From a virus: a stretch of 64,000 nucleotides of DNA. The translations under genes were made by a program, and so were the position numbers. Shown here piece by piece: positions 2,734 to 36,220 of this stretch. The DNA lies in the IMG/VR virus record IMGVR_UViG_3300049172_000080, positions 31,701 through 95,700 of that record; one strand, written 5' to 3'. How positions within the stretch are numbered: position 1 is the stretch's first letter; each line of letters begins with the position of its first letter. The notes beneath the pieces are model-generated. The model made no database searches and was not told the DNA's origin. It saw nothing but the letters and a program-made list of their open reading frames with translations.

Positions 2734-3203
2734 GGCGGATCCCAGATCGCCCCGCCCAAGCCAGCGGGGACAGCGCTGAATTCGCAATCGGTCCACCGAC
2801 AGACGTCCTCGGCTGCCGGGCCGTACTGGACGTACCAGGCGTGGTCGTGGAGTCTCTCGTCGCTCTCGGAAGCCTCAGCCGCCCACTCTTCGTCTGTTGT
2901 CGCCCACTCGTCCCGGTGTGCGAGCAGGATACCGAAGCCCCGGATCTGCCTATCAGGATCGCGGCGGTACGGCGTCCCGGCTTCCATGACGAGGTCACCC
3001 AACTCGGGGTCGCGCATACGTGCGTCCAGTTCGGCGACCTTCGGGGCCGGGTTGCCTACAGTCACCGCATCGCGAAGGGCGCCCGCAACGATGATCATGT
3101 GTCGACGGAGGGCGGTTGCCTTGTCGTCCAGGTCCAGCAGACCATCTCTGCGCGCGGTTCCGGAGACGCCCTCGTAGGGCTGCGGGTATCGGGTGTCGCT
3201 CAA
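2730..3203 (-). CDS. hypothetical protein (157 aa), co-transcribed with int
   Basis: TTG start preceded by the leader variant GACCACGGAATGAGGAACC. Acidic, coding-like composition. Confidence 0.55.
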   Translation of the reverse strand: MSDTRYPQPYEGVSGTARRDGLLDLDDKATALRRHMIIVAGALRDAVTVGNPAPKVAELDARMRDPELGDLVMEAGTPYRRDPDRQIRGFGILLAHRDEWATTDEEWAAEASESDERLHDHAWYVQYGPAAEDVCRWTDCEFSAVPAGLGGAIWDPP

Positions 3204-3245
3204 GGTTCCTCATTCCGTGGTCGTGAGTGTCACGGCTGATGAGCC

Positions 3246-3392
3246 CTAGTCCTGAGGCAGCGCACCGGGCGGGATCACCAGCAGCCCACCGTCCACATGA
3301 TCAGGAGCGTCGCCATAGAGCACGATCTCAATTCCGCCGTCCGTTCGTTCCAGCTCCACCGTATTCACGAGTTGTGGGTCGCGTTCGTCCAT
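3246..3392 (-). CDS. small hypothetical protein (48 aa)
   Basis: Hand-translated ATG..TAG ORF (MDERDPQLVNTVELERTDGG...). It is below the ORF-track size cutoff and has a weak RBS. Confidence 0.3.
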   Translation of the reverse strand: MDERDPQLVNTVELERTDGGIEIVLYGDAPDHVDGGLLVIPPGALPQD

Positions 3393-3493
3393 GCGCTGAG
3401 CCTACCCGGGACCATGATCACGTGGACGCAAAACACACGTTTTGCGCTTCGCCCAGAGCGATTCTGCGAGAACGACGTTCTGTGCCATCCTCC

Positions 3494-3532
3494 GGGTTGT
3501 CCTCTGCGAGATCCCATGGTTTAATTAATTCA
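3494..3532 (+). promoter_or_regulatory. Conserved phage promoter cassette (copy b)
   Basis: GGGTTGTCC-N17-TTTAAT within TGGTTTAATTAATTCA. Lies upstream of the GTG at 3580. Confidence 0.6.
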
Positions 3533-3579
3533 TCGGGCAGGATGAGCGGCCCGACTGACCAAGGAAAGAGGGACCGGCT

Positions 3580-4032
3580 GTGACTCGACGCGAGATGTCC
3601 AAGACGGAGCGCGCGGCCCGCGACGCAATGAAGCCCTACATCCGCGAGGGCCTCATCAGCCAGGGCGAGGCGAACAAGACGATCCGCGACAGCCTCGCCC
3701 TGGTGGAGAAGACCGTCCGGGACAACTACTCACCGGATCAGGCGTTCTACTACGCGGGCAAGATCGCAACGGCGCGCGAGGCGTTCGAGGCGCAGGAGAA
3801 CCCCGTGGTGCGTATCATCCTCCGGGGCAAACTGATGGGCTGGGAGATGTACGCGGCCGTCTACGTGGTGGTCCGCGAGGAGCACGGCGACACGGACGTC
3901 CCGATGGACCAGGCCGTGGAGACCATGGCCACCATCCGCGACACCGCGCGGGAGATGCGGACGGAGTCGCAGGCCTTCAAGGACATCGTCCGTGAGACCG
4001 AGCTGACGGCACCTGTGGAGGCCGCGCGATGA
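3580..4032 (+). CDS. hypothetical protein (150 aa)
   Basis: GTG start after the leader CTGACCAAGGAAAGAGGGACC. Its stop overlaps the next start (ATGA). Confidence 0.6.
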   Translation: MTRREMSKTERAARDAMKPYIREGLISQGEANKTIRDSLALVEKTVRDNYSPDQAFYYAGKIATAREAFEAQENPVVRIILRGKLMGWEMYAAVYVVVREEHGDTDVPMDQAVETMATIRDTAREMRTESQAFKDIVRETELTAPVEAAR

Positions 4033-4550
4033 CCACACCCGAACGCCGCAGGGCGGACCGTCTCCAGGAGCAGGCCGACCGGCTCACGGCCAGGGCTGAG
4101 GGGATGCGCGAGCGGGCAGACGGCATGTACGGCCGGTTCGCCGGCGGACAGCCGCTGCTCGTCGGCCACCACTCCTACCGCTCCGCCCGGCGGACGAAGA
4201 ACCGTGCGGACGCGGCGTCCGACCGGGCGCTGGCCGCGTACACCGAGGCGAAGCAGGCACAGGCCAACGCGAAGTACGCCAAGGCCAAGGCGGACGCGAA
4301 GGACTCAATAGTCGAGAAGGTGTCCGCCCGGACCCGGCCGTGGCAGCGCTCGGATTTCCGGGTGGGCGACATCGTCACCGTGCGCACCTTCGAGACCGGT
4401 CAGGACACCTACCGGGTGAAGAGGGTCAACGCCAAGACGCTGACGCTGGACGGCGGCGGAGGTGGCTGGGACGACCCCCGCCGCGAGTACGACCGAGTCC
4501 TGTCCCGCACCCGGGACGGCGTCACCATCACCGACCCGGCCGAAGTCTGA
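4029..4550 (+). CDS. DUF3560-like protein
   Basis: GQPLLVGHHSYRS motif and C-terminal DFRVGD..Y.V.RVNAKTLT motif, assigned from memory of the family. A paralogous C-terminus occurs at 35036..35482. Confidence 0.55.
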   Translation: MTTPERRRADRLQEQADRLTARAEGMRERADGMYGRFAGGQPLLVGHHSYRSARRTKNRADAASDRALAAYTEAKQAQANAKYAKAKADAKDSIVEKVSARTRPWQRSDFRVGDIVTVRTFETGQDTYRVKRVNAKTLTLDGGGGGWDDPRREYDRVLSRTRDGVTITDPAEV

Positions 4551-4551
4551 C

Positions 4552-4590
4552 GGGTTGTGCCCCTGCCCGGACCATGATTTAATTAAGTCA
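4552..4590 (+). promoter_or_regulatory. Conserved phage promoter cassette (copy c)
   Basis: GGGTTGTGC-N17-TTTAAT within TGATTTAATTAAGTCA. The -35 element overlaps the end of the preceding CDS. Confidence 0.6.
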
Positions 4591-4632
4591 TCGGGCAGGG
4601 GCCCGGCAGACCAAGGAAAGAAGGAACTGACC

Positions 4633-4995
4633 ATGAACGCCACCGCCACCCGCGCCGCCTCCTCCACCATGATCCGCATTGCCGCCGTCCTGCGTGAGCA
4701 CGAGGCGCTGCTGGCCAAGTACGGCGTGCACGGCATCGTCGGCGTCATCGCCTACATCACCGCCGACGGCTACGGCCGCCGCTACGACGCCGACAGCCCC
4801 CTGCCCGCCCTGGCCGTCCGCATCGGCCGCATCGGCTCCCACGTCGCCGGCGTCCGCCGCGTCAACCGCCGCATCGTCCAGACCCACGAGGTGAGCGAGG
4901 CCCGCATGCGCGACGGCATGCTGCTCCAGGACATCGCCAACACCCTCGACTCCCTGCGCATGGGCGGCGGGCCTGTCGGCCGCGTCAGCGCCTGA
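4633..4995 (+). CDS. hypothetical protein (120 aa)
   Basis: ATG after the leader AGACCAAGGAAAGAAGGAACTGACC. Confidence 0.6.
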   Translation: MNATATRAASSTMIRIAAVLREHEALLAKYGVHGIVGVIAYITADGYGRRYDADSPLPALAVRIGRIGSHVAGVRRVNRRIVQTHEVSEARMRDGMLLQDIANTLDSLRMGGGPVGRVSA

Positions 4996-5003
4996 CCCCA
5001 GAC

Positions 5004-5049
5004 ACGACGAAGCCCCGGGACTCCACCACAGGTCCCGGGGCTTCGTCGT
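5004..5049. terminator. Bidirectional hairpin terminator
   Basis: ACGACGAAGCCCCGGGA / TCCCGGGGCTTCGTCGT 17-bp stem. Confidence 0.7.
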
Positions 5050-7834: not shown

Positions 7835-7920
7835 CTTCGTGTGTGAGTAGGCGAAATAGACCTTTCGACGTATGGTGCCCCGCGTCCCCCAGACTTCCTC
7901 GGGTCAGGGTGCACAGGGGT

Positions 7921-7958
7921 GCGTGAGCCCCGCTGGTGTGGTGGCCAGCGGGGCTCAC
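7921..7958. other. Perfect 15-bp stem-loop upstream of the 7988 gene
   Basis: CGTGAGCCCCGCTGG / CCAGCGGGGCTCACG. Could be a second terminator or a leader structure. Confidence 0.45.
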
Positions 7959-7987
7959 GTGCGAACCGCTGCCGACGGGAGAACGAG

Positions 7988-8719
7988 ATGCCCCGGGACT
8001 GGCTGCTCCGCCAGAACAGCGAACTGCGCCGTGAAGGCATATTCAACTGGAGTCTCCCGGCTTGGGCGGGCCGGCTCCCCGACGGCCGGACGTACAACAC
8101 GTGTCCCTCCGCTTCCGCCTGCGCACCGCTCTGTTACGCGCGGCAGGGGACCTACCGCTTCCCGGGCGTCCTCGCCGCGCATGAGCGCAACCTCATGATG
8201 ATTCTGGACGACCTGCCCGGCTGGGAGCGGCGGATGGAAGAGGAGCTAAACCATCCACGTTTCCGGGGCAACCACGTGCGCATCCACGACAGTGGGGATT
8301 TCCTCAGCTTGGAGTACCTGGACGCCTGGCTGCGCATCATGCGCTACGTCCCTGCGACCTCCTTCTACGCGTACACCAAGGAGATCACCCTGTTTCGCGA
8401 GAGGGTGGAACCCGATCCGCCGGCGAACTTCCACTGGTGCTACTCCCTGGGTGGTACGCAGGACCGCCTCATCGACCGCGAGCACGACCGTCACGCCGAC
8501 GTCTTCCCCGACGAAGGCGCCATCGCTGAGGCAGGGTATGCCTCACAAGAGAAGTCCGATCTTCTGGCCATCTACGGCCCGCCGAAGATGGGCATCCCCG
8601 CCAACAACATCCGCCACCTGCGCCGCCGTCAGGGCATGGCCAGCTTCGGCGACTTGCAGGAGCAGCGTGACAACCGCCGACGCGGTCCCGGCAAGCAGTA
8701 CCGCCCCGGGCGGCCGTAG
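7988..8719 (+). CDS. Cys-rich phage protein (possibly Gp88-like family)
   Basis: ATG after GGGAGAACGAG. Motifs CPSASACAPLCYARQG, IHDSGDF and YAYTKE. The family assignment is from memory only. Confidence 0.45.
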   Translation: MPRDWLLRQNSELRREGIFNWSLPAWAGRLPDGRTYNTCPSASACAPLCYARQGTYRFPGVLAAHERNLMMILDDLPGWERRMEEELNHPRFRGNHVRIHDSGDFLSLEYLDAWLRIMRYVPATSFYAYTKEITLFRERVEPDPPANFHWCYSLGGTQDRLIDREHDRHADVFPDEGAIAEAGYASQEKSDLLAIYGPPKMGIPANNIRHLRRRQGMASFGDLQEQRDNRRRGPGKQYRPGRP

Positions 8720-8794: not shown

Positions 8795-10651
8795 GTGCCG
8801 TGGTACGACGCATTCCGGGGGCGTGTGGCCCGGGAGCCTGCCCCGCTGCCCCAGTCGCCGCCGGAGGCGCTGACGGCCGCCGCTGCTCCGCCTCCCGGCC
8901 CCGAGACCAAGTTCCTGCGCCGCACAGAGCAGTGGCAGGAGGAGGTCTGGCGCTTCCACGACACGCTCGGCGAGTTCAATTACGGCGTCGGGTGGTTGGC
9001 CAACATGCTGTCCCGGGTGCGCCTGCGCGCCGGCCGCCTGAAGCCGGGCTCCGATGAACCGGACATCGTCACCTCCGGTACGGCCGCTGACCTGATGATG
9101 CTGTTCGGCGGAGGGGTCGCCAGTCAGTCACAGCTCATGAGGCGCCTGACCGTACAGCTCTCCCTCCCGGGCGAGGGGTACCTGGTCGGCGAGACAGTGG
9201 GCAAGACCGAACGCTGGCAGGTCCGTTCCGTCGACGAGATCCGCGTGCAGTCCGGCAAATACCAGGTGATGGACGAAGAAAGCGCCACCACCGGCCAGGA
9301 CTGGCGCGACCTCGCCGAGGATCACCACGTCGTCCGCGTCTGGCGCCCGCACGACCGGTACTACCACATGGCAGACTCCCCGGCGCGCAGCGCCCGCGAC
9401 ATCATGCGAGAGCTGGAGCTGGTCAACCGGAAGATCACGGCCGAGTACCTCTCCCGCCTGGCCTCCGCCGGACTCCTCCTGCTCCCCGATGAGCTGAGCT
9501 TCCCGGTCCGCGAGGAGTTCGCCAACGACCCGGACAATGCCAACCCGCTGATGTCCGAGTGGATCGAGATTGCCGCGACGGCGATCCAGAACCCGGGAAC
9601 CGCGTCCGCCGTGGTTCCCATTCCGCTGGTCGGTCCGGCCGAGGCGATCGACAAGGTCAAGCACGTCGACTTCACGTTGAAGATCGACGAAAAGATTATC
9701 GAGAAGCGGGACAGCGCGATCAAGCGCCTGGCAACCAAGTTGGACATGCCGGCCGACGTGCTACTGGGTCTGGGTGACGTCAACCACTGGTCTGCCTGGC
9801 AGTTGGAGGAGGGCGCTCTCAAGACGCATATCGCCCCCATCGCTGAGCTGATCTGCGACGCCCTCACGCGCGGCTATCTCCAGCCCCGGCTGGAGGCGTC
9901 CGGCGAGGATCCGGCCGCCTGGGTCGTCTGGTACGACATGAGCGAGCTGGCTCTGAGCCCGGACCGCAGCGGCAACGCGACTCTGGCCTACGACCGGATG
10001 GAGCTGGGTGGCGCCGCGTACCGGCGAGAGCTGGGGTTCGACGAGGACGACGCGCCTTCGCCCGAAGACTTGAAGGAACAGGCCCTGAAGGTCATCATCC
10101 GCACGCTGCCGTCCGGCGCCGCGTCCGCCCTCGCCCAGCTCATCAGCGAGGACGTCCCGCAGATCGTCCCCGTCTCCCCGCAGGACCCCGGGACCGCCGA
10201 GGCCGTGCAGCAAGGCGACACCCCGCCGCCGGCGAACCAGCAGCCGACCGAGGAGGGCGCGGGCCGCGCGGCGCCGCCGTCCGACGAGCCGTCGCCGACG
10301 CAGGACCGCACCGGGCCGCCCTCCCGGGACCAGCGCGCCACGGCCGAGCGGGCGCAGCTCCTCGTGCAGCAGGCCCGGACGCAGCACATGCTCCGAGTCG
10401 GTGCGGCCAACCGGTGGGACCTGCTGCATCCCGGCATCTGCGGCGAGCACGAGTACTCCTGCCCGTTCACACACGCAGTCGCCACGGCGGCCCCGTCCGT
10501 ACGGCCCGGGACGTCGGGGACGTACCTGTGCCACCTGGACGCCTTCGGCCGCCTAGTTCTCGACGGCCGTAGTCCCTACGCGGACACCGCCGCCATGATC
10601 TCCACGTCACTGGTACCGAGGGCGGTGAACGGCCATGCCCCCGCGCACTGA
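8795..10651 (+). CDS. portal protein
   Basis: 618 aa with a GTG start after GGGGAGG. Lies immediately upstream of the MuF/protease fusion and the capsid gene. Pro/Gln-rich C-terminal tail. Confidence 0.7.
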   Translation: MPWYDAFRGRVAREPAPLPQSPPEALTAAAAPPPGPETKFLRRTEQWQEEVWRFHDTLGEFNYGVGWLANMLSRVRLRAGRLKPGSDEPDIVTSGTAADLMMLFGGGVASQSQLMRRLTVQLSLPGEGYLVGETVGKTERWQVRSVDEIRVQSGKYQVMDEESATTGQDWRDLAEDHHVVRVWRPHDRYYHMADSPARSARDIMRELELVNRKITAEYLSRLASAGLLLLPDELSFPVREEFANDPDNANPLMSEWIEIAATAIQNPGTASAVVPIPLVGPAEAIDKVKHVDFTLKIDEKIIEKRDSAIKRLATKLDMPADVLLGLGDVNHWSAWQLEEGALKTHIAPIAELICDALTRGYLQPRLEASGEDPAAWVVWYDMSELALSPDRSGNATLAYDRMELGGAAYRRELGFDEDDAPSPEDLKEQALKVIIRTLPSGAASALAQLISEDVPQIVPVSPQDPGTAEAVQQGDTPPPANQQPTEEGAGRAAPPSDEPSPTQDRTGPPSRDQRATAERAQLLVQQARTQHMLRVGAANRWDLLHPGICGEHEYSCPFTHAVATAAPSVRPGTSGTYLCHLDAFGRLVLDGRSPYADTAAMISTSLVPRAVNGHAPAH

Positions 10652-13622
10652 CCACCAGCACCCGCCGCTCGTGACGGCAGCCGCCGACGGCTCGCACACG
10701 CAGGGCTGCATGATCGCCCTCATGCCGGCGGCAGAGAACGCAGAACGCTTGGCGATACCGGGCGGGGAACCGGCCGAGGAGCTGCACTGCACGCTGCGCT
10801 ATCTGGGCAAGGCAGACACGCACGGCGCTGACGCGCGCACGTCCCTCATAGAGGAGATGCGCAGGCTCAGCCGAGATCTTCCGCCGATCACGTCCAAGAT
10901 CTTCGGGGCCGCGCACTGGAACGGTAATGGCCCCGAGCCGTCATGGGTGTGGTCCGTAGGGGACCTGCCTGACGGGGTGTCTTTGAACGCCGCTCACGAG
11001 ATGGCCAACGAAGCCGTGTGGGCGACGGCCCTTGAAGTCCCCCGACCGCACAGCCCCTGGGTCGCCCACATCTGCGCCGCGTACAGCGATGACCCGGAAT
11101 TCCTCGCGGAGATGGAGCAGCGGCTCGGCGAGGTGACGTTCGACCGCATCCGGGTCAGCTTCGGTGACGAAGACCACGACATCCCGCTGACCGGCGACGC
11201 GGTGACGGCCGCCGCCGGGCCGTTGCGTCGGGAGCCGACCGAGCTGGAGATGGCTTCGCGCGTCGACTTCGCCTCCGTGCACCGCGAGTGGGAGGCGGCG
11301 ACGAACCGGGCGATGCAGTCACTGAGGTCTACGACGGCCGCCTGGCGCCTGGACCTGCGGCAGCAAATCGCCCGCGACCTCGCCGACGACGCCCTGGACT
11401 CCATCCCCGAGCTGACCCTGGACAGCCGGGCCGCCACGGCCACGCTGCTCAGCCTCATGGAGGAGTACGCGGTCAAGGCCGGTCGGGCGTGCCAGCGCGA
11501 GGCGGAGCAGCAAGGCATCGCCGTGCCGGACTGGTCACTGCCCGACGGCGGCGAAGACGCGGTCACCGCCGCGCTCACCGGGCGGCGACTGCTGACGTCC
11601 GTCGCGGAGCTGACCAGCGACCTCATGTCCGGCGCATTGCTGACGGCCGCGAAGCGGAAACTCTCCGGCCTGCTGCGCTCGAACCGGCCGACGAACCAGA
11701 TCGCTGCCGAGGTGGATCGGGAGCTGGCCACGGTCGACGACACCACCGTGCGCGCCGCCGTGGGCTCCGCGATGACGGCCGCTCAGAACGCCGGACGGTA
11801 CGCCGTGATGGAAGCCGCTCCGCTGGCGCAGTCGTACGTGGCCAGCGAGATCCTGGACCGCCGCACGTGCGAGCCGTGCAAGGACATCGACGGCCGTACC
11901 TTCACCTCCCTGGACGGCGCCGTGGCGGAGTACCCGGTCATGGGCTACCGCGACTGCACCGGCGCCCGCTACGGCAACGCCTGTCGTGGCTTCATCATCG
12001 CCGTCTGGCAGGAAGTGCGAAGCCCGGCGACTACGGCGAGCGCCGATACCCAACCGGCCGCACAGGACGCGGCGAAAGGAGATCAGTCCATGACGACCGA
12101 AGCAGCGACCGAAGCGACCGAGGCCCTGAGCAAGGGCGACCCGAACCCTGGCACGCCGAAGGACAAGCGGCTCAAGGAGAACCAGAAGGCGGCCGAGGAG
12201 AAGCAGTGCCCGCCCGGCATGGAGCTGGACGAGGAGTCTGGCGAGTGCGTGCCGGAGTCCGATGAGGAAGAGGCGGCCGGGGGCACGACGGCGCTGCGCG
12301 GCGAGCACGGCCCGGAGACCCTGGCCCACGGCGCGGCGGCTGACGCCGAGAAGGTGACCGGCCCGCCGGTCAGCGAGATGGGCGCCGGGGACACCGCGCC
12401 GTGGCGTGGCCCGCTGACCGTGGAGGGCATAGAGACCGGCGACGGCCGCGAGTTCAAGCCGGACGCACTCACCTGGGCTGATCTGCCTCTGCCGCTGCGC
12501 TGGAACAAAGAGGACTCCCACGGCGGGGAACCGCACACCGTGGCGGTCAATGTCGGCCGCATCGACAAGGTGTGGCGCGAGGACGGCGGCCTGGTCATGG
12601 GCGAGGGCGTGCTGGACCTGTCCACCGAGGACGGCCGCACCGTCCACGGCAAGATCAAGGGCCAATTCCTGCGCGGGGTGTCCGTGGACGTTGACTCCAT
12701 CAAGGACGCCGACATGGAGCTGGTGTGGCCGGCCGACCCGGACGCCGACGGCGAGGGCTCCCCGTTCGACATGCTGTTCGCGTCGCCGGAAAAGGTGGTT
12801 TTCAACCGAGGCCGCATCCGCGCGGCGACGCTGGTGGACATCCCGGCGTTCGCCGAGGCGTACATCGCGTTGCTGGACGAGGCGGGGGCCGTCGTCGCCG
12901 GCGGGGAGCCGATCGGCGCGGTGCGTGAGACGCGTGTCCGGTCGGTTCAGGCGCGCACGGTGGAGGCGCCGCTGCGTCCGCCGGCCGGCTGGTTCGCCAA
13001 CCCGGGTCTGTCCGTGCCGACGGGGATTACCGTCACGCCGGAGGGTCGGGTCTACGGGCACGCCGCGCTGTGGGGGACGTGTCACATCGGGCAGGAGGGT
13101 GTGTGCGTCACCCCGCCGCACGAGGAGTCCCACCCGTACTACATGACCGGCAACGTCTGGACGGAGGACGGCTCGTCGGTGTCCGTCGGCCAGATCACCG
13201 TCGGCACCGGGCACGCGCCACTGTCCTACGGCTACCGGGCGGCGGCTGACCATTACGACAACACCGGCGCGGCCGTGGCCGACGTCGCGGTGGGCAACGA
13301 CGCGCACGGTATCTGGGTCGCCGGGTCCATCCGCCCCAAGACCCCGGAGTCGCGCATCCACGAGCTGCGCGCGGCTGGTCAGGTGTCCGGCGACTGGCGC
13401 CGCATCGGCGGGAACCTGCGCCTGGTGGGTCTGCTCGCGGTGAACGTCCCCGGCTTCCCGGTCCCCAAGCTGAAGACGCACCTGACGTCCGGTCAGCAGC
13501 TCGCCCTCGTCGCGGCGGGTATCCCGCAGCTCAGTGAATCGCTGAGCGAGGAGGAGCTGGACCAGTGGGCTTACCGCCGCGTCCTCAAGACCCTGTCCCG
13601 ACAGGTACACGGAGAGGAGTGA
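10635..13622 (+). CDS. 2H-phosphoesterase (LigT-like) / MuF-like / capsid maturation protease fusion protein
   Basis: N-terminal LHCTLRYLG and VAHICAAY (HxT/HxC) motifs. Central MuF-type segment: RRTCEPCKDIDGRTF..GYRDCTG..CRGFII. C-terminal prohead-protease-like segment: PLRWNKEDSHGG..GHAALWGTCHIG. Confidence 0.7.
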   Translation: MPPRTDHQHPPLVTAAADGSHTQGCMIALMPAAENAERLAIPGGEPAEELHCTLRYLGKADTHGADARTSLIEEMRRLSRDLPPITSKIFGAAHWNGNGPEPSWVWSVGDLPDGVSLNAAHEMANEAVWATALEVPRPHSPWVAHICAAYSDDPEFLAEMEQRLGEVTFDRIRVSFGDEDHDIPLTGDAVTAAAGPLRREPTELEMASRVDFASVHREWEAATNRAMQSLRSTTAAWRLDLRQQIARDLADDALDSIPELTLDSRAATATLLSLMEEYAVKAGRACQREAEQQGIAVPDWSLPDGGEDAVTAALTGRRLLTSVAELTSDLMSGALLTAAKRKLSGLLRSNRPTNQIAAEVDRELATVDDTTVRAAVGSAMTAAQNAGRYAVMEAAPLAQSYVASEILDRRTCEPCKDIDGRTFTSLDGAVAEYPVMGYRDCTGARYGNACRGFIIAVWQEVRSPATTASADTQPAAQDAAKGDQSMTTEAATEATEALSKGDPNPGTPKDKRLKENQKAAEEKQCPPGMELDEESGECVPESDEEEAAGGTTALRGEHGPETLAHGAAADAEKVTGPPVSEMGAGDTAPWRGPLTVEGIETGDGREFKPDALTWADLPLPLRWNKEDSHGGEPHTVAVNVGRIDKVWREDGGLVMGEGVLDLSTEDGRTVHGKIKGQFLRGVSVDVDSIKDADMELVWPADPDADGEGSPFDMLFASPEKVVFNRGRIRAATLVDIPAFAEAYIALLDEAGAVVAGGEPIGAVRETRVRSVQARTVEAPLRPPAGWFANPGLSVPTGITVTPEGRVYGHAALWGTCHIGQEGVCVTPPHEESHPYYMTGNVWTEDGSSVSVGQITVGTGHAPLSYGYRAAADHYDNTGAAVADVAVGNDAHGIWVAGSIRPKTPESRIHELRAAGQVSGDWRRIGGNLRLVGLLAVNVPGFPVPKLKTHLTSGQQLALVAAGIPQLSESLSEEELDQWAYRRVLKTLSRQVHGEE

Positions 13623-13799: not shown

Positions 13800-15590
13800 G
13801 TGCCGGAACCGGAGCTTTTCACCGCACCTGACGACCTCTCCCTGGTGGGCGAGGCCGATCTGCGCGAACTGGAGACCAACGCGGTCGGCGAGTTCGACCG
13901 CGTCAATGGCCTCCAGCACATCACGCCCGAACACATCAGCTACAGCGAACGCCTCACGCGCGACCTGGACCGCATCCGCGCCGAGCTGCGCGTGCGCGCG
14001 GTCCGCGCGGAGGAAGAGGCCGCCACCGCACAGCAGGAGGCGACGCGGCGCATGGCGCTGCTGCGTCAGTCCGTGCACGCCGGTGAGGGCGGCGGAGGCG
14101 GTGACGGAGGCGAGGGCGCCGCCCCCGTCACCGCCGGCGGCCGTGTCGACCTCGCGGCGCTGACCGAGGCCACGGCCAAGGGCGTGGCGTCGATCCTGTT
14201 CGGAGACCAGGCGCCGGAGTCCGTGCGCAAGCGCGTCGCCTCCCTGTCGCAGGTGCGTGAGCGCGCCCCGCAGGCCAAGGCACCGAACGCGCAGACCATG
14301 GCCGTGACGGCCAGCGTTGACATCCCCGGCGTGGCGGCCGGCCAGTCCATGCCGACGCTGGAGGCCCTGGGCGAGGCGTTCCGCGCCAAGGCCAAGGCAG
14401 TCCCCACCACGCAGTACGGCGATCGTGGCGCACCGCGCCACCTGGTGGCCTCGGTGCGCAACCAGTTCGACCACACCGTGGACGACCGCACCTCCGCCTC
14501 CACGGTGGAGGAGCTGTGGCACTCGATGACGCAGGCGGGCGGCAAGGCCGAGGCCCTGCTGGCCGGCGGTGGCTGGTGCGCCCCGTCGGAAGTCTCCTAC
14601 GACTTCTTCAACATCGCCGACACTCCGGTGGGTCTCGTCGACCTGCCGACCGTCGGCGTTTCCCGGGGCGGCATCCGCTTCCCCGTCTCCCCGTCCATCG
14701 GGGACGTGTTCTTCCAGAACGCGGGCAGCAACCCGGCCTCCGGGTTCGGCGGGTTCGGCGTCACCTTCTCCAACGCGAGCGACCCGTGGCTGTGGACCGA
14801 GGCCGATGACATCGCCACCGTCACCGGCTCGGTGAACAAGCCGACCCTGCGCGTGCCGTGCCCGACGTTCGATGAGGCTCGGCTGGAGGCGTACGGCATC
14901 AGCCTCACCGCCGGTAACCTCACCGACGACGCGTACCCCGAAGCCACGCAGAACTTCATCAGGTTGCTGCGGGCCGCCTACGCGCACGTCATCAACGCCC
15001 GGCTCATCTCCCTCATGGTGGCCCGGTCCACCTCGGCGATCGCTCTTGGCGGGTCGAACAAGCCGGCCGCGCAGACCCTGCTCAACGGCGTGGAGCTGGC
15101 GGCGATCGACTACCGCGCCAAGTTCGCCATGCGTGAGGACGCGGTGCTGGAGGTCGTCCTGCCGCGCTGGACGCTCGCGGTCATCCGGGCCGACCTCGCC
15201 TGGCGGACCAAGGTGGAGCGGGAGTCGGTGTCGGACGCGCAGATCACAGCCTGGTTCACGGACCGGTCGGTGCGCCCGCAGTTCGTCTCCGACTGGCAGG
15301 TGCGCGGCTCCGGCCAGTTCGGCCGCGTGGACACGAACATGACGGCGTGGCCGACGGCGGTGGACTTCATGATGTACGCCGCCGGCACCTTCCTTCACGG
15401 CAACGGCCTCCAGCTCGACCTCGGCGTCATCCGCGACAGCGTGCTGAACGCGGAAAACGATTACACGGCCCTGTGGGCGGAGGAAGCGCACCTGGTCGCC
15501 AAGGTCGGCCACGAGTCCCGCCTGTACCGGGCGACGCTCGCGGTCAACGGCTCGGGCAGCGCTGACCAGACCCTCGGTCACCAGCTCTGA
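13800..15590 (+). CDS. major capsid protein (HK97-fold) with N-terminal scaffold-like delta domain
   Basis: 596 aa with a GTG start after GGAGG. Coiled Ala/Glu/Arg-rich N-terminus. GGWCAPSE..YDF and NAENDYTALWAEE segments are typical of actinophage capsid proteins. Confidence 0.75.
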   Translation: MPEPELFTAPDDLSLVGEADLRELETNAVGEFDRVNGLQHITPEHISYSERLTRDLDRIRAELRVRAVRAEEEAATAQQEATRRMALLRQSVHAGEGGGGGDGGEGAAPVTAGGRVDLAALTEATAKGVASILFGDQAPESVRKRVASLSQVRERAPQAKAPNAQTMAVTASVDIPGVAAGQSMPTLEALGEAFRAKAKAVPTTQYGDRGAPRHLVASVRNQFDHTVDDRTSASTVEELWHSMTQAGGKAEALLAGGGWCAPSEVSYDFFNIADTPVGLVDLPTVGVSRGGIRFPVSPSIGDVFFQNAGSNPASGFGGFGVTFSNASDPWLWTEADDIATVTGSVNKPTLRVPCPTFDEARLEAYGISLTAGNLTDDAYPEATQNFIRLLRAAYAHVINARLISLMVARSTSAIALGGSNKPAAQTLLNGVELAAIDYRAKFAMREDAVLEVVLPRWTLAVIRADLAWRTKVERESVSDAQITAWFTDRSVRPQFVSDWQVRGSGQFGRVDTNMTAWPTAVDFMMYAAGTFLHGNGLQLDLGVIRDSVLNAENDYTALWAEEAHLVAKVGHESRLYRATLAVNGSGSADQTLGHQL

Positions 15591-17512: not shown

Positions 17513-17995
17513 ATGGCGTGGACGGACAGCAGGGCTTTCAGGGCGTGGATCTCGGGCCCGATGATGCAGGCCTCCGGGACCGGCTACACCGGCCTGGACA
17601 GCGACACGCTCAAGGCCGCGCTGTTCGACAACACTGTCACCCCGGACCGTGACGCGGCCGTCGCCGATACCGGATACGGAGTGGGCACCTGGACGACCGC
17701 GCGGGAAATCACCGGCGGTGCCAACTGGGCTGCGGGCGGCCGTACACTCACCGGCAAGACGGTCTCCACCCCGAGTCCCGGCGTGGTGATGTTCGACGCG
17801 GCCGACCTTGCCGCCGGTGGCACCCTCACCTTGTCCGATGCCTACGGCTGTCTCGTCTACGACGACTCCATCACCGGCGGCACGGTCGCCGACCAAGGTG
17901 TGGCCTACTTCTACTTCGGCGGCCCGCAACCGGTCGTCTCCGGCTCGTTCACTGTGGTCTGGTCCAGCAGCGGCCTGCTCCAGTTCGAGGCGTAA
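17513..17995 (+). CDS. virion-associated hypothetical protein (160 aa)
   Basis: Tightly packed within the structural operon. Confidence 0.5.
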   Translation: MAWTDSRAFRAWISGPMMQASGTGYTGLDSDTLKAALFDNTVTPDRDAAVADTGYGVGTWTTAREITGGANWAAGGRTLTGKTVSTPSPGVVMFDAADLAAGGTLTLSDAYGCLVYDDSITGGTVADQGVAYFYFGGPQPVVSGSFTVVWSSSGLLQFEA

Positions 17996-18005
17996 GGGGT
18001 CTGCC

Positions 18006-19814
18006 GTGCCTATCCCCGCAGGAGTCGAGACGGTCACCGTCACCGACGGCGGCGTGCCTCTCACCGGGCCCGACGGCACCCCGCTGGAGGGGTCCTTCAC
18101 CGTGGCCGGACCGGACCTCGCCACGGTCGCCGAGGACGACTATCTGTTCGGCGGGTCCGCGCGCCGGTGGGTGAGGGCCGGACGGTTCGACCCCCTGCCG
18201 CTCGTGGCCACGGACGCCACTGGCATAGATCCGACCGGATTCTCCTACACGATCGTTTTCACCCCGCAGTACGGCACGGCTTGGACCCGGTACTTCCAGT
18301 TGCCGAAGGCCTCACCGTCCGTCGTCCTGGCGGACATCCTCATCCCTGATCCGGTGGCCGGCTCGCACGCTGTGCTCGTGAATCCGTCCCAGGTCGTCAT
18401 CGGCCAGGACCAGGTGACTGGACTGCCGGAGGCGCTGGACGCACTGCTGCCCAGGGCCGGCGGCTCGATCACCGGGGACCTGAGCATCTCGGGACGGCTG
18501 AGCACGGCCGGGGTGCCCTTGCCGTTGATGGTGCCTGCCAGTCCTCGCCCGGCCTACCGAGAGGCTTCCTGGTCGCAGCAGTTCCAGTCGGGGCACGGTT
18601 GGACGGCCTCGGGCTCCGGCGTCGGGTCTAGCGAACCCAACGACACCACGACTTTCTGCAAGGGAACGCAGAGCTTCCGCGTGACGACGACCGGCACCGG
18701 CGCCGTGGCGAACATCCGCCGTCTGGGATCCGCGCTGCCGGACCTGACCGGAAAGGCCCTCCGGCTGACCTTCCGCGTCTCGAACACCACATACCTGAAC
18801 CAGATCAACGTTCAGGTCGGCAGCGGCACGTTGACGAACACGTTCTCGTGGCGGCTGCACACGCACTCCGCCACGGCGGAGAACCAGGTGCTCAGTGGTG
18901 AGTGGACGGTCATGACGCTGTCGTGGGCGGACGTCCGCTCGACGACCGGCACCTACTCCATCAGCGCGAACGGCGTCCCCTCCGTGACCTCCGGCTTCAC
19001 GGACCTCCTCTTCCAGGTGGTCGACAACAACACCGGCAACCCGGTCACGGCCCACCTCCAGGCCGTGGAGGTCATCCCGGACACCAAGGAGAAGTTCCCG
19101 AACGGCGTTGTCTCCGTCACCTTCGACGACTCCTACGCCAGCCAGTACACCCTCGCCCGGCCGAAGATGGACGCCCTGGGCTTCCGGGGCACCCTGTACA
19201 CGATCTGCGACGTCATCGGAACGTCGTCGTACCTGACGCTGCCCCAGCTCCAGTCCGTGCAGGGCGCCTCGGGGTGGGAAGTGGCGGGCCACGCCTATTC
19301 GGTGGCGAACCACAACGCGAAGTTCAACACCTTGACCTCGGCAGTGGTGGAGGACGACATCCGGCGCACCCGGGCGTGGATGCTCGCCAACGGCTTCCCG
19401 AGCGACAGCTTCGCCTACCCAGGTGGGTTCTTCGGCCGGACCAGCGATGGCGCGTCCATCGAGTCCCTCACCTGCCGCTACTTCTCCAGCGGGCGGGGCA
19501 TCAGCAGCGCCGACAACCTGGAGAGCTTCCCGCCCCCGACCCCGCTGCGCATGCGGTCCATCACGGGGATTGGCGCCCTTGCCGGGGCCTCGGCCCGAGG
19601 TCTCCCGGCGAACCTCACCGGCCCTGGAGGATCGCTCGACCGCTGCCAGCTCGACGGCAACTGGACCACCCTGACCTTCCACGAGATCGTCACCGGCTCG
19701 GTCACGACGACGAATCAGTGCAGCCAGACCGACTTCAACTCGATCATGGACGCCATCGCAGCGCGCGGCATCCGCGTCCTGCCGGTGGGCGACGTCCTCC
19801 GGCTCAACGCCTGA
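18006..19814 (+). CDS. structural protein with C-terminal polysaccharide deacetylase (NodB/CE4-like) domain
   Basis: GTG start after AAGGGG. C-terminal VSVTFDDSYASQ..RGTLY..GHAYS motifs. Confidence 0.6.
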   Translation: MPIPAGVETVTVTDGGVPLTGPDGTPLEGSFTVAGPDLATVAEDDYLFGGSARRWVRAGRFDPLPLVATDATGIDPTGFSYTIVFTPQYGTAWTRYFQLPKASPSVVLADILIPDPVAGSHAVLVNPSQVVIGQDQVTGLPEALDALLPRAGGSITGDLSISGRLSTAGVPLPLMVPASPRPAYREASWSQQFQSGHGWTASGSGVGSSEPNDTTTFCKGTQSFRVTTTGTGAVANIRRLGSALPDLTGKALRLTFRVSNTTYLNQINVQVGSGTLTNTFSWRLHTHSATAENQVLSGEWTVMTLSWADVRSTTGTYSISANGVPSVTSGFTDLLFQVVDNNTGNPVTAHLQAVEVIPDTKEKFPNGVVSVTFDDSYASQYTLARPKMDALGFRGTLYTICDVIGTSSYLTLPQLQSVQGASGWEVAGHAYSVANHNAKFNTLTSAVVEDDIRRTRAWMLANGFPSDSFAYPGGFFGRTSDGASIESLTCRYFSSGRGISSADNLESFPPPTPLRMRSITGIGALAGASARGLPANLTGPGGSLDRCQLDGNWTTLTFHEIVTGSVTTTNQCSQTDFNSIMDAIAARGIRVLPVGDVLRLNA

Positions 19815-22512: not shown

Positions 22513-25500
22513 ATGGCCGTCGGCACGCTGATCGGAGTCGGGTTCGTCCGTATCGACGCCGACACATCTCCGGCCATGAAGGCGGTACAGGGGCTGGGGC
22601 GGATCGGCTCGCACGCCCTCGCCAGTGCCTTCACGCCGGTGACGGCAGCCGTGGCGGCCGGGGTCGGCGCCCTGACGGCCACCCTGGCCTCTGCCGGCGC
22701 GGCGGGCGGCGCGTTCGCGGCGGCCGTCGTCCCGCAGTTCCAGAAGATCACCGAGGCCAGTCAGAAGCTGAAGACTGCGGAGGACGCCGAGGAGAAGGCG
22801 ACCGTCGCCAAGGCGCATGCCCAGAAGCTGGCCCGGGAAATGGGTGTCAAGTACGGCCAGCAGATCCAGATTTCCTCCGGCATGTCGGAGGAGGCCAAGA
22901 CCAAGGCGCAGGAGTACAACAAGGCGTTGAGCGAGGTCACCACCTCCACCAACGCCGCGCGCAAGTCGCAGGCCATCTACGACGAGAAGATGAAGGCGAT
23001 GTCCCCGGCCACCCGGGACACAGCCAACGCGTACCAGAACCTCAAGGACGCCGTAGAGGACTGGTCCGACTCTTTGTCGTCGACCACGATGCCGATCTTC
23101 ACGACGGGTCTGAACAAGATCCGGGAAATGCTGCCGAAGCTGACCCCGTTCGTGAAGACCGGTGCCCAGGAAATCCGTGGGTTCCTGTCGTCGTTCGGGG
23201 AGGGCCAGGCCGGCCGGGTCTTCTCCGAGTTCGGTAAGAACCTCCAGGCGAACGCCGGTTCCGCGCTGGGCGGTCTGCTGACCTCCATCAAGAACATCAC
23301 CGTCGGCGTCGTCGGCATGATCAACGCTTTCATGCCGGTGCAGAAGGACATGTCCGGCGGCATGGTGGAGCTGACGCAGCGTTTCGCCGACTTCGGCGCG
23401 AACCTCGGCAAGAGCGAGGGGTTCGCGACGTTCATGGAGCAGGCGCGCGGGGCTATCCCGCCGATCAAGGAGTTTGTCTCAGCTCTCGGCGACGTCGCCT
23501 CCGCAGCAGGCCCCCTGGGCGGCATCGGACTGCTGGTGCTCCAGGTCTTTTCGCAGATCGTGGCTGCGACGCCCACACCGGTGCTGCGGTTGCTCATTCC
23601 GGCGATCCTCGCCGTCAACGCCGGGATGAAGCTGTACGCCATCTACCAGTCGGCCTCGGCTGCGGCTACGTGGGCCTTCAGCACGTCGGTCGTGGCGAGC
23701 AACGGGGCCGTGGCCAGCAGCCGTGCGGCTCTGCTCCTTTTCCGGATCCAGCAGGCCGCATACGCCGTGAGTACGGCCGCGTCCACCGCAGCCACGTGGC
23801 TGTTCACCACATCGGTCACCACGTCCAGCGGCGCGGTGTACGCCAGCCGGGCCGCGCTGATCGCACACCGGATCGTCACGCTGGCATCTGCCGCAGCCAC
23901 CGGGATAGCCACAGCGGCCACCTGGGCGTTCAGTGCCGCGATGGCCGTCGCCACCTCTCCCATTACGCTGGTGATCGCCGCGTTGGTCGCCCTCGGCGTG
24001 GGGCTCTTCCTGTTGTGGAAGAAGTCGGAGACTTTCCGCAACATCGTCAAGGGCGCCCTGAGCGGCGTGGCCAGCGCGGCAAAGGCCGTCGGAGCCTGGT
24101 TCGCCGGACCCTTCGTCAACTTCTTCACCGGGGCCTGGAACGGGCTGAACAACCGAGTGTTCCAGCCGATCGGCCGGTTCTTCACGCAGACCCTGCCCGG
24201 AGCCGCCGCGATCGTGCGGGACCGTGTCACCGGGGCGTGGAACAGCCTGCGCGACCGGGTGACCGTAGCCTACGCGGCGGTCCGTGACCGGGTGCTGGCG
24301 CCCATCGGCCGGTTCTTCACCCAGACCATCCCCGGCTGGGCGCTGACCGTGGCCAGCCGGGTGACCGGATCCTGGAACGGCCTGCGGGATCGGCTCGTCG
24401 GGGTCTACGGGTCCGTGCGCAACCGGGTGTTCTCGCCCATCGGCAACTTCTTCACCCGGACCATCCCCGGCTGGGCGAGTACCGTGCGCTCGCGTGTGAG
24501 CGGCGCCTGGTCCGGGCTGTTGGACCGGCTCGTCGGGGTCTACAACTCGATACGCAACCGGGTGTTCTCACCCATCGGGAACTTCTTCACCAAGACCATC
24601 CCGAACTGGGCGAAGACCTTGCGCGACCGCGTGAAGAGCTACTTCTCCGCAATGCGTGACGGCATCGGCACCATCTGGAACGGCATCAAGTCCAAGACCA
24701 AGGCGCCCATCAACTGGGTGCTGGACAAGGTGTGGAACAAGGGGATCTACAAAATCTGGGGGAAGATCGCCGGCTGGGTCGGGCTGGAGAACAGCCTGAA
24801 AGAGATCAAACTGCTGGCGGCCGGCGGCACGGTCGGTCGGGCCACCCCGGGTGTCTTCAACAAGCCAACCGCGATCGTCGGCGAGGGCAACCCGAGGTAT
24901 CCGGAATTCGTGATCCCCACCGACCCCAAGTACGCCACGCGGGCACGGGGCCTGTGGGAGGCGGCCGGGGCGCACTTCTACGCGGACGGCGGCATCCTCG
25001 GCTCCATCAAGGGCGCCGTCGGCTCCGTGCTCGATACAGGCAAGAACCTGAGCAAGACGGCCCTGAGCTTCCTGTCCGACCCGGTCGACAAGGCCAAGGA
25101 CATGCTGATGGGCCCGCTGAAGAACATGACGCGGGCCATCGGCTCCAGCTCATGGGCGAAGATGGCCGCCCGGCTGCCGCGCATGGCCGTGGACGGCCTG
25201 CTCAAGGCCGTGACGTCCGTGGGCTCCGACCTGCTCGGCATCGGCGGATCCGGCGGCCCGGTGGACATCGGCGGCTCAGGTGTGAAGCGCTGGACCGGCG
25301 TCGTGCGCCAGGCCCTCGGCCTCGTCGGCCAGCCGCTGTCCCTGACGAACACGACGCTGCGCCGCATGAACCAGGAGTCCGGCGGCAACCCCAGGGCCGT
25401 CAACCTCTGGGACATCAACGCCAAGCGCGGCTATCCGTCGGTCGGTCTCATGCAGGTCATCCGGCCTACCTTCCAGTCCCACGCCGGCCGGTTCCGCAAG

Positions 25501-25890
25501 ACGGGGCCGTTCATGTACGGCACGTCCATCAACCCGCTGGCCAACGTCTACGCGAGCATGCGTTACGCGTTGTCGGCGTACGGCAGCCTGTCCCGCGCCT
25601 ACAACCGGCCCGGCGGGTACGCGGGCGGCACCGATGGTGCGACCAATGGATGGCATTGGGTCGGGGAGATGGGGCCGGAGCTGCTGAAGCTGCCCGCCGG
25701 TGCCCGGGTGCGCAGCCACCGCGCGTCGGTACGCCAGGCCGTCACCGCGTCCCCGTCCGTGATCCACCTGACCGTGGAGAACCACGGCGTGATCGGCAGC
25801 CGGCAGGAGACGCTGGACTGGCTGACCCACGCACTGGACCAACTCGACCGCCTCAACCGGCTGCCCCGTGCGGCGAGGAGGGCCGGATAG
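22513..25890 (+). CDS. tape measure protein with lytic transglycosylase (SLT) domain
   Basis: 1125 aa with Ala-rich helical and TM segments and internal tandem repeats. SLT motif ESGGNPRAVN..GLMQVI. Confidence 0.85.
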   Translation: MAVGTLIGVGFVRIDADTSPAMKAVQGLGRIGSHALASAFTPVTAAVAAGVGALTATLASAGAAGGAFAAAVVPQFQKITEASQKLKTAEDAEEKATVAKAHAQKLAREMGVKYGQQIQISSGMSEEAKTKAQEYNKALSEVTTSTNAARKSQAIYDEKMKAMSPATRDTANAYQNLKDAVEDWSDSLSSTTMPIFTTGLNKIREMLPKLTPFVKTGAQEIRGFLSSFGEGQAGRVFSEFGKNLQANAGSALGGLLTSIKNITVGVVGMINAFMPVQKDMSGGMVELTQRFADFGANLGKSEGFATFMEQARGAIPPIKEFVSALGDVASAAGPLGGIGLLVLQVFSQIVAATPTPVLRLLIPAILAVNAGMKLYAIYQSASAAATWAFSTSVVASNGAVASSRAALLLFRIQQAAYAVSTAASTAATWLFTTSVTTSSGAVYASRAALIAHRIVTLASAAATGIATAATWAFSAAMAVATSPITLVIAALVALGVGLFLLWKKSETFRNIVKGALSGVASAAKAVGAWFAGPFVNFFTGAWNGLNNRVFQPIGRFFTQTLPGAAAIVRDRVTGAWNSLRDRVTVAYAAVRDRVLAPIGRFFTQTIPGWALTVASRVTGSWNGLRDRLVGVYGSVRNRVFSPIGNFFTRTIPGWASTVRSRVSGAWSGLLDRLVGVYNSIRNRVFSPIGNFFTKTIPNWAKTLRDRVKSYFSAMRDGIGTIWNGIKSKTKAPINWVLDKVWNKGIYKIWGKIAGWVGLENSLKEIKLLAAGGTVGRATPGVFNKPTAIVGEGNPRYPEFVIPTDPKYATRARGLWEAAGAHFYADGGILGSIKGAVGSVLDTGKNLSKTALSFLSDPVDKAKDMLMGPLKNMTRAIGSSSWAKMAARLPRMAVDGLLKAVTSVGSDLLGIGGSGGPVDIGGSGVKRWTGVVRQALGLVGQPLSLTNTTLRRMNQESGGNPRAVNLWDINAKRGYPSVGLMQVIRPTFQSHAGRFRKTGPFMYGTSINPLANVYASMRYALSAYGSLSRAYNRPGGYAGGTDGATNGWHWVGEMGPELLKLPAGARVRSHRASVRQAVTASPSVIHLTVENHGVIGSRQETLDWLTHALDQLDRLNRLPRAARRAG
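24154..24693 (+). repeat. Four tandem 135-bp (45-aa) repeats inside the tape measure gene
   Basis: Units R(V)(F/L)xPIG(R/N)FFT(Q/R/K)TIPGWA..RV(T/S)G(A/S)W.GL.DR start at 24154, 24289, 24424 and 24559. Confidence 0.8.
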
Positions 25891-31621: not shown

Positions 31622-31938
31622 CGTCAGGGGAGATGGTGAACGTCTGGGGCAGCGCGATCGCTCTTGTCGGGTGCCTGTCCTTCGTCGCCGTCTACACCCT
31701 GCTCGCCCGATGGTGGCGGACGCTCGTCGGCCGGCTGCTCGTCATCAAGGCTCTGGCCATTGCGGCGTTCATGGCCATCTCCATCTGCGTCACCGCGTTC
31801 GGGGTCGACGCGGAGGCCCTGCGCACGCTGCGGGGCATCCTCGCCGCGCTGTTCGGAGTGCTGATGCTGTATCAGGCGTGGCTCGTAGGCCACACGCAGA
31901 TCAAGGGGGCCCGCCGTGGCGGCACCGATGAACCCTGA
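31618..31938 (+). CDS. multi-pass membrane protein, holin-like
   Basis: Three or four hydrophobic segments. Overlaps the endolysin start. Confidence 0.55.
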   Translation: MTSGEMVNVWGSAIALVGCLSFVAVYTLLARWWRTLVGRLLVIKALAIAAFMAISICVTAFGVDAEALRTLRGILAALFGVLMLYQAWLVGHTQIKGARRGGTDEP

Positions 31939-36076: not shown

Positions 36077-36220
36077 GTGGTGCCTTCCTTGGTCAGCGGT
36101 GCGGTGCAGGGGGTGGGTGCTCCCGGCCGGTCACGATCCGGCACTTCCGCCTTGAGAGGGCGATGGACATCCGTTATCCCACGGGAGCGGGTTGGGACCG
36201 AACGGTCCCGAACAGCGTGG

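Follow-up and report, generated by a model that had tools for sequence, protein, structure and literature searches.

Phosphoesterase domains of the 2H type have been described as parts of phage polyvalent proteins, in which a MuF or portal domain can be joined to them (Iyer et al., 2017; PMC5512222). Here we analyze a protein of this kind, a head-assembly polyprotein of 995 amino acids (aa) with an N-terminal 2H domain, which is encoded (10635..13622, + strand) in a 64,000-nucleotide (nt) stretch of viral DNA, positions 31,701 to 95,700 of IMG/VR record IMGVR_UViG_3300049172_000080. This whole stretch is called the window, and coordinates refer to it unless a contig is named. The 2H versions found in polyvalent proteins never associate with RNA ligases, and two roles were proposed for them, an Usb1-like RNase or an enzyme breaking down the 2'-5' oligoadenylate or cyclic nucleotides of defense systems, with the Usb1-like RNase being favored by analogy to proteins that combine an RNase (PBECR) with MuF or portal (Iyer et al., 2017; PMC5512222). 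In a later study, the 2H-MuF and 2H-portal fusions were taken to suggest packaging in the head and injection against (oligo)nucleotide-based immune signaling (Iyer et al., 2022; PMC9503650). Both studies recognize MuF-type proteins as carriers of effector domains, in line with a preliminary description of the window.

The polyvalent proteins share with the window protein the 2H family, the MuF, portal and protease carriers and, often, the company of ADP-ribosyltransferase and NUDIX effectors; they differ in being comparative-genomic predictions. MuF-anchored polymorphic toxins and the MuF-VIP2/Alt ADP-ribosyltransferase fusions of actinobacteriophages (PMC7302621) also combine a MuF-like module and an enzymatic effector in one polypeptide. 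In these the effector is usually C-terminal to MuF, whereas the window protein carries its 2H domain at the N-terminus and ends in a protease/assembly part. Acb1 (phages T4 and FBB1; 7t26, 7t27) is likewise encoded by phages and, as the preliminary description had stated, has the 2H fold; its active-site tetrad is HxT/HxT, and cleavage is metal-independent and proceeds via a cyclic phosphate intermediate (Hobbs et al., 2022; PMC9117128). Unlike the window domain, Acb1 is a compact stand-alone protein of 140–165 aa, for which no fusion to head proteins is known. It has a C-terminal lid, which in FBB1 Acb1 accompanies the aromatic base-stacking residues Y12, W74, F107 and W147 (PMC9117128).

The window protein fits the pattern of polyvalent proteins and MuF-anchored effectors. 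The fusion of a 2H domain to a head protein is thus not new in kind; such fusions are common and their function has already been predicted in print. What is new here, for a clade of Streptomyces phages, is a conserved H-x-C variant of the second catalytic motif, an exact natural deletion of the domain, selection figures and candidate cleavage sites flanking the domain.

The N-Terminal 2H Domain

The 2H domain is delimited at aa 23–186 (10701..11192, + strand). PHROG matches, a family profile, an AlphaFold2 (AF2) model and Foldseek searches agree on a predicted 2H phosphoesterase fold at the N-terminus of the polyprotein, and we consider the assignment solid. The preliminary description had placed the domain at 10707–11174, which corresponds to aa 25–180 and lies inside these borders, and its two motifs, LHCTLRYLG (with H51) and VAHICAAY (with H145), are found exactly where it had located them. 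Putative catalytic motif 1 is H51-C52-T53 (AEELH51CT53LRYL; 10785..10793, + strand). Putative catalytic motif 2 is H145-I146-C147 (PWVAH145IC147AAYS; 11067..11075, + strand), in which a Cys replaces the usual Thr/Ser.

The domain matches phrog_2659, annotated as ‘RNA ligase’ (E=8e-31), and phrog_14859 (E=4e-8). A phmmer search with the single domain against PDB sequences found nothing, and a family profile built from the window domain and 36 relatives was needed. Against PDB sequences, this profile matched 1iuh (E=1e-11), 5h7e (E=7e-11), 1vdx (E=1e-9) and Escherichia coli LigT (E=6e-7), and more weakly AKAP7-like proteins, mouse hepatitis virus (MHV) ns2 and Acb1 (7t26, E=3.8e-4; 9q2g, E=0.01). 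The match to 7t26 is partial (profile positions 84–157); apart from such weak partial profile matches, no full-length significant sequence relation of the window domain to Acb1 was found. Used alone in a word-indexed search for homologues, the domain gave 12 matches, mostly fragments, and the fuller homologue set required a mixed alignment with phage sequences. Taken alone, the window sequence stays below the curated cut-offs of Pfam LigT_PEase (PF02834; 17–18 bits versus 23.3) and 2_5_RNA_ligase2 (PF13563; 14–15 bits versus 27), and the cut-off of the LigT/ThpR equivalog TIGR02258 is not reached either (12.7 bits versus 65.7). The relatives retrieved by the family profile have precomputed matches to PF13563, PF02834 or PF10469.

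The AF2 model of the domain, run with the family alignment, has a mean predicted local distance difference test (pLDDT) score of 88.4 and a predicted template modeling (TM) score of 0.82. Its core (aa 21–184) is well defined, with pLDDT values of 90–98 over aa 21–180. In a Foldseek search of this model against the PDB, the best 50 matches are all 2H enzymes (E down to 2e-6, probability 1.00, TM score up to 0.64). The set comprises E. coli LigT, human Usb1, the cyclic phosphodiesterases (CPDases) of Deinococcus radiodurans and plants, Thermus thermophilus TT0787, AKAP18, rotavirus VP3, Acb1 and the poxvirus cGAMP phosphodiesterase. Entries 5ldm, 5v1m, 5h7e and 1iuh are among ranks 1–9, whereas Acb1 occupies ranks 13–36 with TM scores of 0.37–0.59. 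Among predicted viral structures (BFVD), the best matches are actinobacteriophage 2H proteins labeled ‘RNA ligase’ or ‘capsid morphogenesis’ (TMq up to 0.72), with Acb1-labeled proteins appearing from rank 23 onward. The preliminary description had called the domain LigT/Acb1-like. The fold in this label holds, but the pairing does not hold equally for both names, as LigT/ThpR, Usb1 and CPDases are closer to the domain than Acb1 is, by both sequence (E=1e-11 for LigT/ThpR versus 4e-4 for Acb1) and structure (Acb1 at Foldseek rank 13 or lower).

LigT/ThpR enzymes carry the signature H-x-T-L-x-R, with an Arg after motif 2. The window domain resembles them (1iuh, 5h7e, 5ldm, 4qak) in size (about 175–185 aa), in the presence of two H-x-T-type motifs and in fold. 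It differs in having H-I-C-A-A-Y instead, so that the Arg is replaced, and in being fused to virion assembly modules, while LigT/ThpR is a free cytoplasmic enzyme. The Tyr at position +5 after motif 2 (H-I-C-A-A-Y) is nearly invariant in the phage 2H family.

Conservation of the Catalytic Residues and Selection

The family profile was searched exhaustively against 1.84 billion cluster representatives and matched 2,364 clusters (50% identity) at E≤1e-30 and 5,471 at E≤1e-10. Residues and domain positions were counted in the 138 best representatives, which share at most 50% pairwise identity. H51 is present in 137 of these, and T53 and H145 in all 138. Position 147 is a Thr in 112 representatives, a Cys in 25 and an Ala in one. 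The Cys versions form essentially one clade (the nearest neighbor also has a Cys for 23 of the 25), which extends down to 37% identity with the window domain. Among 109 near-full-length homologues of the window protein, Cys147 is found in 108 and the complete HxT/HxC combination in 106. Since H-x-C is conserved both in close homologues and across a deep clade, the evidence argues for Cys147 as a functional residue and not for decay; the preliminary description had seen in this motif a reason to doubt activity, a doubt that the comparison does not bear out. By these alignments, Cys147 is a conserved feature that gives no sign of inactivation, and the 2H domain is likely to be catalytically active.

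Codon comparison of five genes, the window gene and four homologues (loci L008–L011), gave ratios of nonsynonymous to synonymous substitution rates (dN/dS) of 0.22–0.49 for the 2H cassette, 0.12–0.39 for the MuF part and 0.04–0.16 for the two C-terminal modules. The cassette is under purifying selection, yet evolves faster than the assembly modules. Its dS (0.55–1.09) is higher than that of the remainder of the gene (0.2–0.55), which suggests that recombination has moved cassettes from one related phage to another.

A Discrete and Dispensable Cassette

The borders of the cassette, at about aa 13–17 and aa 190–194, are marked by a natural deletion variant. The best homologue of aa 201–995 (P0045; 98% identity) is 818 aa long and lacks exactly 177 residues; its N-terminus, MPPRTDHQHPPLVTAAAGPLRRE..., equals that of the window protein minus these residues. 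In the window, the same positions carry two 16-nt direct repeats that are identical in 15 of 16 positions. The left one, GTGACGGCAGCCGCCG (10671..10686, + strand), encodes V13-T-A-A-A at the N-terminal cassette edge, and the right one, GTGACGGCCGCCGCCG (11202..11217, + strand), encodes V190-T-A-A-A at the C-terminal edge. The variant is carried on a 29.5-kb metagenomic contig (JGI 3300041965) and on a 3.7-kb NCBI contig (L006; WUUC01015437.1). When the latter is aligned to the window by BLAST, the two pieces overlap by exactly the 16-nt repeat, of which it has one copy at its positions 795–810. Both repeats are thereby joined and 531 bp, or 177 codons, are gone in frame.

An assembly artefact across a 16-nt repeat was considered and judged unlikely, and the 29.5-kb contig is syntenic, with the gene order of the window: exonuclease, integrase, GP88, portal, the 818-aa protein, a 596-aa capsid protein and a 295-aa protein. 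Since one sample probably underlies both the JGI and the NCBI record, they count as a single observation. In a distant homologue of 1240 aa (P0157), the cassette is likewise missing at this boundary, and a precomputed intein match (PF14890) lies in the middle of the protein. Among the 120 best homologues, 109 have the same single ORF (open reading frame) with an N-terminal 2H domain and 11 have no 2H match, eight of the latter being protease-only genes. As a 98%-identical variant without the 2H module exists in nature, head assembly does not require this module.

The ATG of the polyprotein gene at 10635 has a GAGGG Shine-Dalgarno-like sequence 11 nt upstream. A GTG at V13 was considered as the true start and rejected, as it has no GAGGG-type sequence upstream, unlike the ATG, and as the close homologues and the deletion variant also retain the N-terminus MPPRTDHQHPP.

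The Carrier Modules

The 995-aa protein consists, in order, of the 2H domain, a linker, a MuF-like module, an acidic linker, an S78-like module and a conserved C-terminal module. The MuF/SPP1-gp7-like minor capsid module spans about aa 281–470 (11475..12044, + strand), with the Pfam match at aa 355–428, and is recognized through PF04233, TIGR01641 and phrog_595 (E=6e-9). The label is supported by a 74%-identical homologue (P0062) with a precomputed PF04233 match, and the related proteins of the Streptomyces phages TurkishDelight and TP1604 reach 39–43 bits with PF04233.

The S78-like module (aa 586–770; 12390..12944, + strand) is the most conserved part of the protein, with a mean identity of 82% across 107 homologues, and contains candidate catalytic residues H630/H634 and S683, the latter in the motif GVSVDVDS. 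It is probably a prohead serine protease of the HK97/S78 type, an assignment that is weak. The AF2 pLDDT of this module is mostly 70–93. TIGR01543 matches aa 634–692 below its threshold (E=0.054; 13.7 bits versus a cut-off of 59), and with hhalign the segment FLRGVSVDVDS aligned, at low probability, only with the S78 Ser-motif region of a 2H-S78 fusion (P0037). A Foldseek search with the model of aa 575–995 gave no match at E≤0.001; the protease of Kaposi's sarcoma-associated herpesvirus (KSHV) is at rank 2 (probability 0.84) and T4 gp21 at rank 16, all with E≥0.05. Moreover, the Pfam scan of the aa 586–770 region gave no protease match, the mid-domain profile matched only AbiEii toxins among PDB sequences, at chance level, and phmmer with the C-terminal 415 aa found nothing among PDB sequences.

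The conserved C-terminal module (aa 783–965; 12981..13529, + strand) matches phrog_18402 (E=5e-68), whose annotation, together with the weak S78-like signals, is the basis of the ‘protease’ label. Its homologue in Gordonia phage proteins is the ‘head maturation protease’ module at their N-terminus, with 47–48% BLAST identity to Tiamoceli gp18 (aa 21–197) and EMoore gp13 (aa 18–203).

The cassette borders coincide with a short motif that may be the cleavage site of the prohead protease. Sites of the form VTA[AGS] are found in the fusion protein at aa 13, 190 and 310 and in the major head protein at aa 110 and 169. These two proteins thus hold 5 of the 10 occurrences, while making up 11% of the 14,729 residues encoded by the window ORFs. 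Conservation of the VTA motif extends to the two borders of the cassette, and homologues keep the C-terminal one, V-T-A-A-A-G-P-L-R-R. In the capsid proteins of TP1604 and EMoore (capsid genes of loci L002 and L004), in addition, the scaffold-like N-terminal part ends in VTA[SA]G.

The Cassette in Other Phages

Homologues of the 2H cassette with 30–50% identity were found in 406 actinophage records, always within or beside the head-morphogenesis block. Their position in the gene varies: in the 138 representatives, the 2H domain is N-terminal in 70, internal in 47, C-terminal in 8 and stand-alone in 13. In Streptomyces phages, it is located between the MuF and protease modules (TurkishDelight gp15, aa 287–489; TP1604 gp11, aa 265–435). 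Gordonia phages Tiamoceli (gp18) and EMoore (gp13) have it after the protease-annotated module (aa ~413–579), with MuF as a separate gene, and Bxz1 gp93 is a stand-alone 2H protein near the portal gene. The SEA-PHAGES genes annotated as ‘RNA ligase’, ‘head maturation protease’ or ‘capsid maturation protease and MuF-like fusion protein’, including that of YDN12, carry a homologous cassette in a different order, being internal or stand-alone there and N-terminal in the window. Genome annotators label the family ‘RNA ligase’ or ‘2'-5' RNA ligase’.

The window protein combines the 2H and protease-annotated modules in one polypeptide, and the domain make-up varies among its relatives. In 66 multidomain members, the Pfam partners are Phage_Mu_F (7), portal (3), ADP-ribosyltransferases (9), Zeta toxin (1), NUDIX (1) and prohead proteases (7) of three kinds (S78_2, ClpP, SDH). 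In close relatives with split genes, the upstream gene encodes 2H, MuF and a C-terminal ADP-ribosyltransferase (PF03496), and the protease/assembly part is a separate protein of 547–549 aa whose gene overlaps the upstream one by 8 nt (2909–5008 and 5001–6650 in L012; 2942–5008 and 5001–6644 in L013). The order 2H-MuF-ADP-ribosyltransferase is the classical layout of an injected effector. The possibility that the 2H domain is tied to the protease instead of to MuF is disfavored in the clade of the window by these split genes.

Possible Role of the 2H Domain

We tentatively favor the reading that the 2H domain is a cargo that is packaged in the head, freed and injected, and whose target is most likely an immune signaling nucleotide, followed by RNA; taken as a whole, we place this reading somewhat short of probable. 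The polyprotein, whose gene is flanked by those for portal and capsid, would be expressed late as part of the head operon, and its MuF and protease modules would bring it into the procapsid. There, the prohead protease would cut at the VTA-type sites flanking the cassette, releasing within the head a free enzyme of roughly 20 kDa, which would enter the next host with the DNA; protein made late and left unassembled may also be active in the cell that produces it. The 164-residue domain, with its two predicted His acid/base motifs and presumably no metal requirement, would be an optional cargo of a large phage-specific clade. Its substrate would be a ribose-linked phosphodiester or a 2',3'-cyclic phosphate. 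The most likely targets would be the signals of the cyclic oligonucleotide-based antiphage signaling system (CBASS), those of type III CRISPR or 2'-5'-linked signals, and next to these RNA ends or RNA. In favor of an immune nucleotide are the precedent of Acb1, the effector-type partners of the family and the result that the 30 largest window ORFs include no RNA ligase, polynucleotide kinase (PNK) or RtcB. The role against immune signaling that the preliminary description had suggested is plausible, and it had been proposed earlier by Iyer et al.

Several points weigh against this reading. The nearest characterized relatives of the domain are the LigT/ThpR RNA 2',3'-cyclic phosphodiesterases and the RNA exonuclease Usb1, which makes RNA no less favored as a substrate than a signaling nucleotide. 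Prohead proteases activate CBASS late in infection (Hobbs and Kranzusch, 2026; PMC12991175), so the entry of the DNA is not obviously the relevant moment of delivery. About 29 kb of a probable 93-kb element lie outside the window, so that a partner for RNA repair may have escaped the survey of its 30 largest ORFs. The candidate cleavage motif is short and consists of common residues. Both the MuF and protease assignments are below curated thresholds; for MuF, the window protein scores 24.4 bits versus 29.6 with PF04233 and 23.6 versus 39.65 with TIGR01641 (E=5e-5 for both). The C-terminal half is poorly modeled, with a mean pLDDT of 52 for aa 575–995 and values of 20–40 for the last 230 residues. 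Finally, our literature searches returned no virion proteomics and no activity assay for any head-protein-linked 2H domain, and the papers on Rhodococcus phage E3 and on Gordonia, Microbacterium and Arthrobacter phages gave no statement on a 2H protein in virions.

An RNA-directed role early after injection is possible but rather unlikely. The enzyme would then heal the RNA ends with 2',3'-cyclic phosphates that host toxin or anticodon RNases produce, rescuing tRNA or mRNA, or trim or degrade host RNA as a metal-independent RNase. Besides the sequence and fold matches to RNA 2',3'-CPDases and Usb1, the ‘RNA ligase’ and ‘2'-5' RNA ligase’ annotations of the family, the tRNA-Glu and tRNA-Ser genes of the phage and the preference of Iyer et al. 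(2017; PMC5512222) for an Usb1-like RNase agree with such a role, and a preformed, injected enzyme suits early RNase defenses better than late CBASS signaling. However, no RNA ligase, RtcB or polynucleotide kinase accompanies the gene among the 30 largest window ORFs, this 2H version is never found with RNA ligases (PMC5512222), the LigT-type Arg after motif 2 is replaced (H-I-C-A-A-Y), and the TIGR02258 score (12.7 of the required 65.7 bits) is far from that of a LigT/ThpR equivalog.

We consider doubtful the most far-reaching form of the cargo reading. Here, the cassette would be an exchangeable cargo bounded by prohead-protease sites, with the cut between VTA and a following A or G, and once injected it would become the first virion-delivered enzyme shown to destroy immune nucleotide signals before phage gene expression, the conserved Cys standing for a changed substrate or a redox-tuned activity.

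It is improbable that the 2H domain serves mainly as a late countermeasure in the producing cell, where, produced in one polypeptide or operon with the prohead protease, it would neutralize the CBASS alarm that this protease raises, with its packaging being incidental. This would match the late activation of CBASS by prohead proteases (PMC12991175) and the fusion of 2H domains to at least four types of these proteases, namely the window module, S78 (P0037), S78_2/XkdF (P0041 and three representatives) and ClpP/SDH, as well as the Gordonia phages that fuse 2H to a protease-annotated module and keep MuF separate. In the split genes of the window's clade, however, the 2H domain goes with MuF and the ADP-ribosyltransferase and not with the protease; a fusion to the protease is explained equally well by targeting to the capsid, and the reading presupposes that a Streptomyces CBASS senses these proteases.

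Very improbable, finally, is a non-catalytic or vestigial 2H domain that serves as a structural, scaffolding or nucleic-acid-binding head module and whose Cys reflects lost activity: motif 2 does deviate from the canonical H-x-T/S and the single sequence scores below the Pfam and NCBIfam cut-offs, but both His residues and T53 are invariant or nearly so, Cys147 is kept in 108 of 109 homologues and in a deep clade, dN/dS is below 0.5, and a near-identical phage without the domain indicates that it is not needed for the head structure.

If the 2H cargo is indeed packaged and active, actinobacterial phages would carry a ready-made enzyme against defenses based on RNA or nucleotide signals, and the idea of Acb1 would be extended to a pre-loaded, injected form. 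The prediction for the family dates from 2017 and concerns a large family (at least 2,364 clusters at E≤1e-30, and 406 actinophages). The natural 98%-identical variant without the cassette, the mutable residues H51, H145 and C147 and the candidate cleavage sites provide an experimental handle.

The Locus and the Element

The polyprotein gene is situated directly between the portal gene (8795..10651, + strand; phrog_776, E=1e-131), whose stop is overlapped by 17 nt, and the major head protein gene (13800..15590, + strand; phrog_777, E=6e-123). Just upstream of the portal gene, a GP88-family protein with a Cys-rich motif is encoded (7919–8716, + strand; phrog_1392, with PF17338 in syntenic homologues). 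The synteny from portal to capsid is also found in L006 and its JGI counterpart, L007, L012 and L013. An exact copy of the 995-aa gene is present on Logan contig SRR35509215_4518. In a megablast search, none of 50,697 phage records matched the gene by its DNA sequence.

The window, with a G+C content of 65–72%, represents a temperate siphovirus-like element of a Streptomyces-type host. It encodes a tyrosine integrase (1636–2796, - strand), a tape measure protein (22513–25887), an endolysin (31916–32884) and a ParA-like partition protein (37016–37807). The non-structural arm contains two tRNA genes, tRNA-Glu(CTC) at 36116–36188 and tRNA-Ser(CGA) at 40339–40435, both on the - strand. In the tail region, a 668-aa protein (17808–19811, + strand) combines a tail-fiber-like N-terminus with a polysaccharide deacetylase domain (PF01522), and a 1010-aa protein (25891–28920, + strand) is annotated by PHROG as ‘phosphodiesterase’ (phrog_24476, E=3e-29).

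Contigs with homologues of the polyprotein in Streptomyces assemblies are about 89–102 kb long, similar to the 93.6 kb of phage TurkishDelight. Given that both the tyrosine integrase and the ParA-like protein are present, the element may be kept as a phage-plasmid. Four glycosyltransferase-like genes (33161–34216, + strand; 52390–52986, 53578–54339 and 62955–63605, - strand) and a C5 cytosine DNA methylase gene (43250–44386, - strand) may serve the modification of the virion or of the DNA.

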